NCBI RefSeq assembly: GCF_037042905.1
Contig: NC_087247.1
Span: 11,418,148 to 11,482,147, forward strand
DNA length: 64,000 nucleotides
Reading direction: 5' to 3'
Source of the DNA: Lytechinus pictus
Lineage: Eukaryota
The notes under the pieces are model-generated. The model saw nothing but the letters and a program-made list of their open reading frames with translations, was not told where the DNA came from and did not search any database. Within the stretch, counting starts at the first letter, position 1. Each line of letters starts with the position of its first letter. This document shows, piece by piece, positions 33,960 to 35,400 of this stretch. A program made the translations under genes and the position numbers.

Positions 33960-35400
33960 TTTACTAACATTCAAGGAGAATGAAACCTTCGAAACAAGTA
34001 GGCTTGTGTCGAAACAGAAAAATAAAAGAATACGAACAAAGAAAGTTTGAGAAATATCGGACAGATAATGAGAAAGTTATGAGCATTTGAATATTGCAAT
34101 CACTAATGCTATGGAGATCCTCCAAAATGTCTCTTTTTGCCGCTTTTCCGACGGCGGCGGCGGCGTCAACACCAAATCTTAACCTGAGGTTAAGTTTTTG
34201 AAATGACAGCATAACTTAGAAAGTATATGGACCTAGTTGATGAAACTTGGCCATAAGGTTAATCAAGTATTACTGAACATCCTGCCTGAGTTTCATGTCA
34301 CATGACCAAGGTCAAAGGTCATTTAGGGTCAATGAACTTAGACCATGTTGGGGGAATCAACATCAAAATCTTAACCTAAGGTTAAGTTTTTGAAATGTCA
34401 TCATAACTTAGAAAATATATGGACCTAGTTCGTGAAACTTATACATAAGGTTAATCAAGTATCACTGAACATCCTGCATGAGTTTCACGACACATGACCA
34501 AGGTCAAAGGTCATTTAGGGTCAATGAACTTTGGCCGAATTGGGGGTATCTGTTGAATTACCATCATAACTTTGAAAGTTTATGGATCTGATTCATGAAA
34601 CTTGGACATAATAGTAATCAAGTATTACTGAACATCCTGTGCAAGTTTCAGGTCACATGATCAAGGTCAAAGGTCATTTAGGGTCAATGAACTTTGGCCA
34701 AATTGGGGTATTTGTTGAATTACAGCCATAAATTTGAAAGTGTGTTGGTCTAGTTCATAAAACTTGGACATAAGAGTAATCAAGTATCACTGAACATCCT
34801 GTGCGAGTTTCAGGTCACATGATCAAGGTCAAAGGTCATGTAAGGTCAAAGAACTTTGGCCACGTTGGGGGTATTTGTTGAATTGCCATCATATCTCTAT
34901 AAGTGTATTGGTCTAATTCATAAAACGTGGAAATACGAGTAACCAAGTATCACTGAACATCTTGTGCGAGTTATAGTAGTTTTCAAAATCAGCACTGCTG
35001 CTATATTGAATCGCGTGATGCAGGTGAGACGGCCAGAGGCATTCCACTTGTTACTTTTTCTTATGGTGATACAAACTCTTTATTCATGATGTATTCTTTA
35101 AAAATCTGTATTACACGCCCTCCTATAGAAAGAACACATGATCTACTGATAGATGTGATAAAAGAAGGCAGTTTAAGTGAAATATATACTAAAGTAATGG
35201 GGAGAGTTGTTCACAAGTGACATCACACATCTCCATGGCATTAGTGATCTCAATATTCAAATGCTCATAACTTTCTCATTATTTGTCTGATTTTTCCCAA
35301 ACTTTCATTGATCTGTTTCTTTGATTTTTTTTGTTTTCACGCAAGCTATCTTGTTCCAAAGGTGTCATTCACCTTTCACTTTTGTGCTTCCAGTGCCCAA
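33960..35400. mobile_element. Foldback (TU-like) element: ~190-bp long inverted termini around a 5-unit internal tandem repeat (34150-34990)
   Basis: Left arm ggagaatgaaaccttcgaaacaag...gagcatttgaatattgcaatcactaatgctatggagatcctcc (33961-34130). Its reverse complement is at 35190-35395. Internal units of 160-190 bp each contain ccaaggtcaaaggtcatttagggtcaatgaact. Confidence 0.8.

Follow-up and report, generated by a model that had tools for sequence, protein, structure and literature searches.

A probable nested pair of old DNA transposons, a truncated HINE within a long-TIR MITE, in an intron of a TEP1-like gene

Helentron-associated interspersed elements (HINEs), which are non-autonomous, include DINE-1, pearl, DTC84, MgE, Cg_HINE and Tsp (PMC4067079, PMC7492417, PMC3879986). 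The anatomy of DINE-1 of Drosophila and of the HINEs of mites and mosquitoes was described by Thomas et al. in 2014, who placed HINEs in the same subfamily when their last 60 bp were at least 80% identical (PMC4067079). Vojvoda Zeljko et al. described subterminal inverted repeats (subTIRs) of 11-12 nt, an inverted repeat (IR) of 7-12 nt at a distance of 1-12 nt, a left flank that ends in a microsatellite and a right flank of ~60 bp harboring a subTIR and a palindrome; these elements use oligo-T targets, leave no target-site duplication (TSD) and carry repeats of 140-180 bp, mostly in up to 5 copies, and the insertion sites of some of them were repetitive sequences, possibly other transposable elements (PMC7492417). 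The core repeats of DTC84 present a palindrome near the unit junction, and those of pearl CvA a microsatellite-like box of low variability (PMC3879986). In the sea urchin S. purpuratus, the Tsp element, present in about 1000 copies, has been classed as DINE-1-like/pearl-like (PMC4067079 supplement; PMC3879986).

The locus considered here lies in a 64-kb stretch of DNA, referred to as the window, in which a sequence-only reading had recognized a single foldback transposon of the TU type carrying an array of nuclear-receptor motifs in a TEP1 intron. The comparison of three loci within this window indicated that the structure probably consists of two old DNA transposons, both non-coding, with a 5′-truncated HINE lying inside a TTAA-type long-TIR MITE, in an intron of a TEP1-like gene (Table 1). 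The intronic position proposed by that reading was borne out, since the Pfam hits on the flanking ORFs follow the domain order of TEP1 on the + strand (TROVE, DUF4062, STAND P-loop, APAF1_C helical domain and WD40/TEP1 beta-propellers). The parts of the main element were also found apart. The arms were present without the array at 45625-46209, where a compact copy had been placed at 45603-46230, and one unit with its own flanks and termini, lacking the arms, was present at 59609-59914, in agreement with the solo unit with a DR1 motif proposed for 59640-59930. Because each of these two relatives carries only one of the components, with separate termini, arms and array represent two independent elements. 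Moreover, the non-repeated sequence on both sides of the array is shared with the 59.6-kb copy, showing that the array owns its flanks and that the main element contains them. Anatomy, distinct termini and distinct copies are all direct observations. All three copies are old, since the arms diverge from each other by 17-22% and the five motif-bearing units (four in the array and the 59.6-kb unit) are 78-88% identical in pairwise comparisons. No RNA family or tRNA was detected in or beside the elements with Rfam, at gathering and permissive thresholds, or with ARAGORN. The locus thus described adds to known kinds of elements, and a curated repeat library of the genome, if one exists, may already contain it.

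Table 1. Features of the main element, of MITE copy B and of the solo HINE (positions in the window).
Feature	Position	Strand	Basis
Left TSD (TTCA) of MITE copy A	33970-33973	.	TTCA directly outside both termini
Left arm (TIR) of MITE copy A, starting with AGGAGAATGAAAC; inner side shorter than in copy B	33974-34129	+	blastn to right arm and both copy B arms; four-arm alignment; terminus search
Junction TCTCTTTTT between MITE arm and HINE remnant	34130-34138	.	No alignment to copy B arms; none clear to left flank of 59.6-kb HINE
HINE left-flank remnant with (GGC)4 microsatellite (34153-34164)	34139-34165	+	Alignment to 59656-59686 of solo copy
HINE core tandem repeats u1-u5	34166-34972	+	TRF; repeat search; unit alignment; pairwise identities; palindrome fold
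u1, 192 bp	34166-34357	+	Unit alignment
DR1 motif AGGTCAAAGGTCA in u1	34309-34321	+	Identical copies at 34501-34513, 34664-34676, 34826-34838
u2, 192 bp	34358-34549	+	Unit alignment
u3, 162/163 bp	34550-34711	+	Unit alignment
u4, 162/163 bp	34712-34874	+	Unit alignment
u5, truncated	34875-~34972	+	Unit alignment
HINE right flank within main element, with 3′ subTIR ATGCAGGTGAGAC (35018-35030), then GGCCAGAGGCATTCCACTTGTT	34991-35052	+	85% over 62 nt to 59851-59912 (blastn)
Middle segment of MITE copy A, 122 nt	35053-35174	.	Not alignable to copy B middle; no other match in window
Right arm (TIR) of MITE copy A, ~26-nt deletion relative to copy B	35175-35374	-	blastn; four-arm alignment; terminus search
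Right TSD (TTCA) of MITE copy A	35375-35378	.	Same TTCA outside left terminus
MITE copy B, without array: TTAA, 45625-46209 (585 bp), TTAA	45621-46213	.	blastn; four-arm alignment; flanking direct repeats
Solo HINE, complete and small, without MITE arms	59609-59914	+	Sequence; subTIR search; hairpin folds; flank comparison
T9 of solo HINE	59609-59617	+	Sequence
5′ subTIR GTCTCGCCTGCAT, 13 nt	59618-59630	+	subTIR search
IR GCGAGAC of solo HINE	59638-59644	+	Pairs with GTCTCGC at 59618-59624
(GGY)n microsatellite GGTGGCGGCAGCGTCGTC of solo HINE	59670-59687	+	Sequence
Single core unit of solo HINE, ending right after DR1 (59830-59842)		+	Sequence
3′ subTIR ATGCGGGCAAGAC in ~65-nt right flank of solo HINE	59878-59890	+	Reverse complement of 5′ 13-mer with two mismatches
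3′ hairpin AGAGGcattCCTCT of solo HINE	59895-59908	+	Fold
TGTTTT end of solo HINE	59909-59914	+	Sequence

The outer element is a long-TIR MITE of the TTAA-targeting, presumably cut-and-paste kind, piggyBac-like or of another superfamily with 4-bp TSDs, whose duplication could possibly be read as 2 bp (TA/TC) instead. Its copy A spans 33974-35374. The inverted arms, which had been placed at 33961-34130 and 35190-35395, are real, with limits mostly inside those positions (33974-~34129 and 35175-35374), and they pair as reverse complements: 33973-34118 pairs with 35375-35229 at 83% over 147 nt (blastn), with a core of 101 nt at 87% between 34018-34118 and 35229-35329 (repeat search). In copy B, arms of ~205 nt, 78% complementary, enclose a middle of ~160 bp. 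Across both copies the TIRs are long and able to fold back (146-205 nt, 78-83% complementary), and folding of copy B yielded a near-complete hairpin (-136 kcal/mol, z = -18); copy A as a whole also folds back on its arms, as the sequence-only reading had anticipated. The four-arm alignment and the terminus search defined the termini as AGGAGAATGAAAC...GTTTCATTCTCCT. It was observed that AGGAGAATGAAAC occurs at all four predicted MITE ends, with 11 matches in the window at up to two mismatches against 2.8 expected, the remaining seven corresponding to unrelated sequence. Classical piggyBac termini are CCC...GGG, which the termini found here do not resemble. Perfect 4-bp direct repeats border both copies, TTCA/TTCA in A, directly outside the two termini, and TTAA/TTAA in B, and no direct repeat longer than 4 bp was found at the ends of either copy. 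TRF detected no tandem repeats in the arms of copy A (33974-34129 and 35175-35374) or of copy B.

The two MITE copies differ on the inner side. The left arm of copy A ends at ~34129, and that of copy B runs ~95 nt further; the missing inner segment was not found on either side of the HINE insert. The middles of the two copies did not align, with a local alignment score of 22 within the shuffle null (17.8 +/- 2.4, maximum 26).

The inner element was characterized from its complete solo copy at 59.6 kb, whose borders are T9 and T4 and whose flanks contain no direct repeat that could represent a target duplication. Its 5′ subTIR GTCTCGCCTGCAT is complementary to the 3′ subTIR of the same copy at 11 of 13 positions (59878-59890) and to the homologous segment of the nested copy at 12 of 13 (35018-35030). 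Since none of the mismatches is shared by the two 3′ copies, one of them always fitting the 5′ copy, the ancestral subTIR pair was probably perfect. With up to two mismatches, GTCTCGCCTGCAT has five matches in the window against 0.58 expected, a number reached in none of 100 shuffles, and three of them, at 59618 (+), 59878 (-) and 35018 (-), are the 5′ end and both homologous 3′ ends. The other two (4445 and 17274) lack a T-run, an IR and repeats and were set aside as chance matches. The 5′ subTIR and the 7-nt IR placed 7 nt downstream form a hairpin of -11.7 kcal/mol (z -3.55, 0/200 shuffles). A weak fold was obtained for the 3′ hairpin of the solo copy (z -1.6, 12/200 shuffles), and in the nested copy this hairpin is degraded (z +0.3). 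In both copies a microsatellite immediately precedes the 192/163-bp units, (GGC)4 at 34153-34164 and GGTGGCGGCAGC at 59670-59681, and the core repeat is present in the same orientation, in 4.6 copies in the main element and in one in the solo HINE.

Two other identities were considered for the 59.6-kb copy. Canonical Helitrons have 5′-TC...CTRR-3′ ends with a hairpin ~10 nt before the 3′ end and insert between A and T. The ends of the 59.6-kb copy are T9-GTCTCG... and ...CCTCTTGTTTT/AATAT, with no CTRR and no A^T context. Neither this candidate nor that of a minus-strand, poly-A-tailed SINE was retained once the orientation and limits of the copy had been established by the matched subTIRs.

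Within the main element, the five tandem units of 160-190 bp of the sequence-only reading proved to be four full units and a partial one, of 192 and 163 bp. TRF resolved the array into a period of 192 repeated 1.9 times (34166-34531) and a period of 163 repeated 3.5 times (34399-34972), and the pairwise identity of the four full units was 80-88%. The palindrome CTTAACCTnAGGTTAAG, comparable to that of DTC84, opens each 192-bp unit, and exactly this 29-nt segment is lacking in the 162/163-bp units. Relative to the solo copy, ~38 nt are missing from the left flank, corresponding to the T-run, the 5′ subTIR and the IR; no + strand subTIR match was found at this flank. The absence of these three features indicates that the nested HINE is 5′-truncated, its left insertion junction having been lost as well. 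On the opposite side, the right flanks of the main and the 59.6-kb copies end at the same base (...CTTGTT), and with this shared end and the identity given in Table 1 the two would belong to one subfamily.

Judged on its anatomy, the inner element is probably a non-autonomous rolling-circle element (Helentron-type), best described as a HINE of the DINE-1/pearl/Tsp type. With DINE-1 and the HINEs described in PMC4067079 it shares subTIRs of 13 nt, an IR whose 5′ half lies within the 5′ subTIR, central tandem repeats preceded by a microsatellite, a 3′ subTIR and the lack of coding capacity; a short candidate stem-loop behind the 3′ subTIR, strings of T at the borders and an apparent absence of target duplication would also agree with these elements. 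It differs from described HINEs in the left T-run, which has 9 T here and 2-5 T in those elements, and in its short and weak 3′ stem-loop. A string search of supplements of the HINE papers retrieved no similarity to the subTIRs published there. Likened by their description, the bivalve elements pearl, DTC84, MgE and Cg_HINE share the succession of a flank, a microsatellite, one to five core repeats of ~160-180 bp and a flank of ~60 bp, as well as the occurrence of short arrays dispersed in euchromatin and introns, with some copies located in possible other transposable elements (PMC3879986, PMC7492417). Unlike the ACGG/GTCY microsatellite of bivalve pearl/DTC84 elements, that of the inner element is a trinucleotide (GGY), and two unit lengths (192 and 163 bp) coexist within one array. 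Tsp, a non-coding, tandem-repeat-bearing class of element described in an echinoderm, would be the likeliest named family for the inner element if the window comes from a sea urchin. The locus would offer a further case of HINEs seeding short satellite-like arrays within genes, beyond insects and bivalves.

The main alternative takes arms and array as one mobile unit, either a single foldback (TU/FB-like) element or a tandem-repeat MITE, of which the 45.6-kb copy would be a deletion derivative and the 59.6-kb copy a fragment. TU elements have TIRs of several hundred bp, with outer domains made of short tandem repeats, and produce 8-bp duplications. In foldback elements, the tandem repeats constitute a TIR domain, present in both arms in inverted orientation, and the TSDs are of 8-10 bp; foldback-like elements with internal repeats have also been described (PMC4079207). 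In favor of this view, the main element has long arms on which it folds back and a perfect 4-bp duplication at its borders, and a nested composite could in principle be mobilised whole by the MITE transposase. It also shares with FB, Tetris, Galileo and TU the long inverted termini able to fold back, the absence of coding capacity and the association with tandem repeats. However, its arms consist of unique sequence, its units all lie in one orientation and belong to a nested element, and its TSD is of 4 bp; since repeats in both TIRs and a TSD of 8-10 bp were both looked for and neither was found, a TU/FB-type foldback was rejected. Moreover, the array keeps its own conserved right end inside the composite, with a subTIR and a common stop base, and the matched subTIRs, the T-run borders and the 5′ hairpin of the 59.6-kb copy distinguish it from a random fragment. 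We consider the one-unit alternative improbable. Under the preferred nested model, an apparently single, exotic foldback would resolve for annotation into a TTAA-type MITE and a HINE derived from Helentrons, both of them routine, and splitting the structure would keep a false family out of repeat libraries.

For this nested pair, we infer the mechanism of transposition and the order of events, including a single deletion, as follows. The MITE, of ~0.5-0.6 kb, would have moved by cut-and-paste, duplicating a 4-bp target (TTAA in copy B and TTCA in copy A). The HINE would move into T-rich DNA by rolling-circle transposition, with no target duplication, its 13-nt subTIRs and 3′ hairpin being recognized in trans by the Rep-helicase of a Helentron, and slippage or unequal exchange would alter the number (1 to 4.6) and type of its core repeats. 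At the main locus, a HINE would have landed inside the MITE, and a later single deletion probably took both the 5′ end of the HINE and the inner portion of the MITE left arm, which would leave the nested HINE immobile. One deletion would span and so explain both gaps, and because the middle of copy A does not align with that of copy B, a deletion is favored over a clean insertion. The segment 35053-35174, although not alignable to the middle of copy B, may then be the middle of the MITE. The DR1 motifs consist of an AAGGTCA heptamer in doubled form, passed on as part of the core repeat.

These motifs were the second subject of the sequence-only reading, which had assigned a perfect DR1 to every internal unit. 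It was perfect in all four full units; the fifth, which breaks off ahead of the motif, has none, and the array thus holds four DR1 motifs and not five. In the whole window AGGTCAAAGGTCA occurs five times (34309, 34501, 34664, 34826 and 59830), always on the + strand and inside a unit, and no other occurrence was found in the 64 kb with one mismatch allowed (0.14 expected), so that the AGGTCA pairs are conserved across copies and are not generic matches. The third half-site proposed 3 nt later was also present in units 1-4, as AGGGTCA or, in unit 4, as AAGGTCA, and each full unit has three or four direct half-sites in about 45 nt. The DR1 is contained in CAAGGTCAAAGGTCA (15 nt), which is the longest stretch without variation across the five motif-bearing units. 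A run as long was obtained in 4% of column shuffles (P about 0.04), a marginal value for a motif chosen after inspection, and conservation is almost as high in a second block, AATCAAGTATyACTGAACATCC. The alignments are thus consistent with DR1 motifs conserved by descent, only marginally above the rest of the unit.

The doubled AAGGTCA box, a perfect DR1 with 1-2 further half-sites, might be kept intact because it is used. It might belong to a receptor-bound enhancer module disseminated across the introns of an invertebrate by a family of rolling-circle transposons, or serve as a box for recognition and recombination of the core repeats; both uses appear improbable to us. A more specific proposal, which we hold slightly less probable still, is that the clustered motifs are working sites for NR2-class receptors (HNF4, RXR and COUP-TF), forming an intronic enhancer or silencer brought by the transposon. 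The 13-mer AGGTCAAAGGTCA equals the DR1 consensus used for HNF4alpha, and binding of HNF4alpha to DR1/DR2 sites carried by Alu has been demonstrated experimentally (PMC3252374). As in Alu, a perfect DR1 consensus is carried and multiplied by a repeat, the difference being that the DR1 is known here as a motif match only. All five units long enough to include the motif keep it perfect in spite of their divergence, and it falls within the longest invariant run. However, common descent explains this conservation, tandem copies also homogenise each other, the second block is kept almost as well, and the probability of 0.04 is marginal for a motif picked after being seen. In addition, (A)AGGTCA heptamer runs are found in unrelated animal repeats (metagenome loci L001, L018, L020, L023 and L025), which fits an origin by slippage. 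Receptor binding, if true, would provide an invertebrate counterpart of the Alu-borne HNF4 sites.

Least probable of all is that the array is ordinary satellite DNA put into the intron and the MITE by recombination, with coincidental subTIR and hairpin features around it: the window does contain other arrays of 144-210-bp units (15570-16723, 21131-21716, 27413-28486 and 12001-12417), in which a cursory inspection of the ends established no transposon ends, but two independent loci present the same non-repeated left and right flanks and the same final base, and the 13-nt inverted pair lies exactly at these flanks against 0.58 chance matches per window.

Searches outside the window were conducted with a conserved exon of the TEP1-like gene and with two 21-mers. 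Among 5.8 billion proteins, the exon matched a single one, at 48% identity. The 21-mer AATCAAGTATYACTGAACATC had no match in metagenome, viral or prokaryote genome contigs. The 21-mer containing the DR1 had no match in genome or viral contigs and was found at 26 metagenome loci, where blastn revealed no similarity beyond the seed; these loci were rejected as members of the family, most of them corresponding to a coding stretch (..LILNDMIKVKGQ..) and a few to unrelated repeats rich in AAGGTCA.

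The TEP1-like gene that hosts the main element also carries a tandem array of its own NACHT/STAND P-loop exon (..GRKNQVKQCLDIIKKPETGLLMVAGKQGCGKTALL..). Because each of copies 2-6 begins with a G-run and their mutual likeness is 61-87%, these copies look, from their sequence, like decaying pseudo-exons lying downstream of the real exon. Several further short satellite-like arrays were observed within the same gene; a GC-rich segment containing CGCG lies just ahead of the one with 160-bp units. In a cursory reading of the 160-bp and 144-bp arrays, no ends of the type found in HINEs (Helentron-associated non-autonomous elements) were recognised.

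Repeats and repeat relatives in the window
Feature	Position	Period and copies
Satellite-like array	12001-12417	210 bp x 2
Satellite-like array	15570-16723	160 bp x ~7
Satellite-like array	21131-21716	144 bp x 4
Satellite-like array	48301-48499	110 bp x 1.8
P-loop exon array	27413-28486	173-179 bp x 6
MITE-arm relative	23130-23330	
SINE-type repeat	35560-35665; 49017-49319; 63323-63535	
Trinucleotide runs (GGT, ATC, ATG)	38785-38939; 48505-48661; 57672-57957	maximum ~95 copies

Also present was a sequence, tttaaaggacaag...aaaagttatgacattttaaag, distantly related to the MITE arm, the long TIR of the MITE enclosing the HINE; it matched 35256-35331 at 72% over 76 nt (blastn), which suggests that MITEs with similar arms form a wider group. 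The window additionally contains a tRNA-like SINE-type repeat (for example, ggtgggatttgaacccagggcctc), one copy of which follows the main element at a distance of ~190 bp downstream; no tRNA was called at its copies by ARAGORN or Rfam.

Regarding the metagenome loci matched by the DR1-containing 21-mer, runs of the (A)AGGTCA heptamer, the unit doubled in the HINE core-repeat motif, occur at L001, L018, L020, L023, and L025 in unrelated repeats, which come from other DNA of environmental or host origin. Of the 26 loci, about 11-14, the majority of those remaining, have in common a coding stretch (..LILNDMIKVKGQ..), within which the 21-mer is happenstance. The long GGT, ATC, and ATG runs of the window give rise to spurious ORFs rich in His, Ile or Met.
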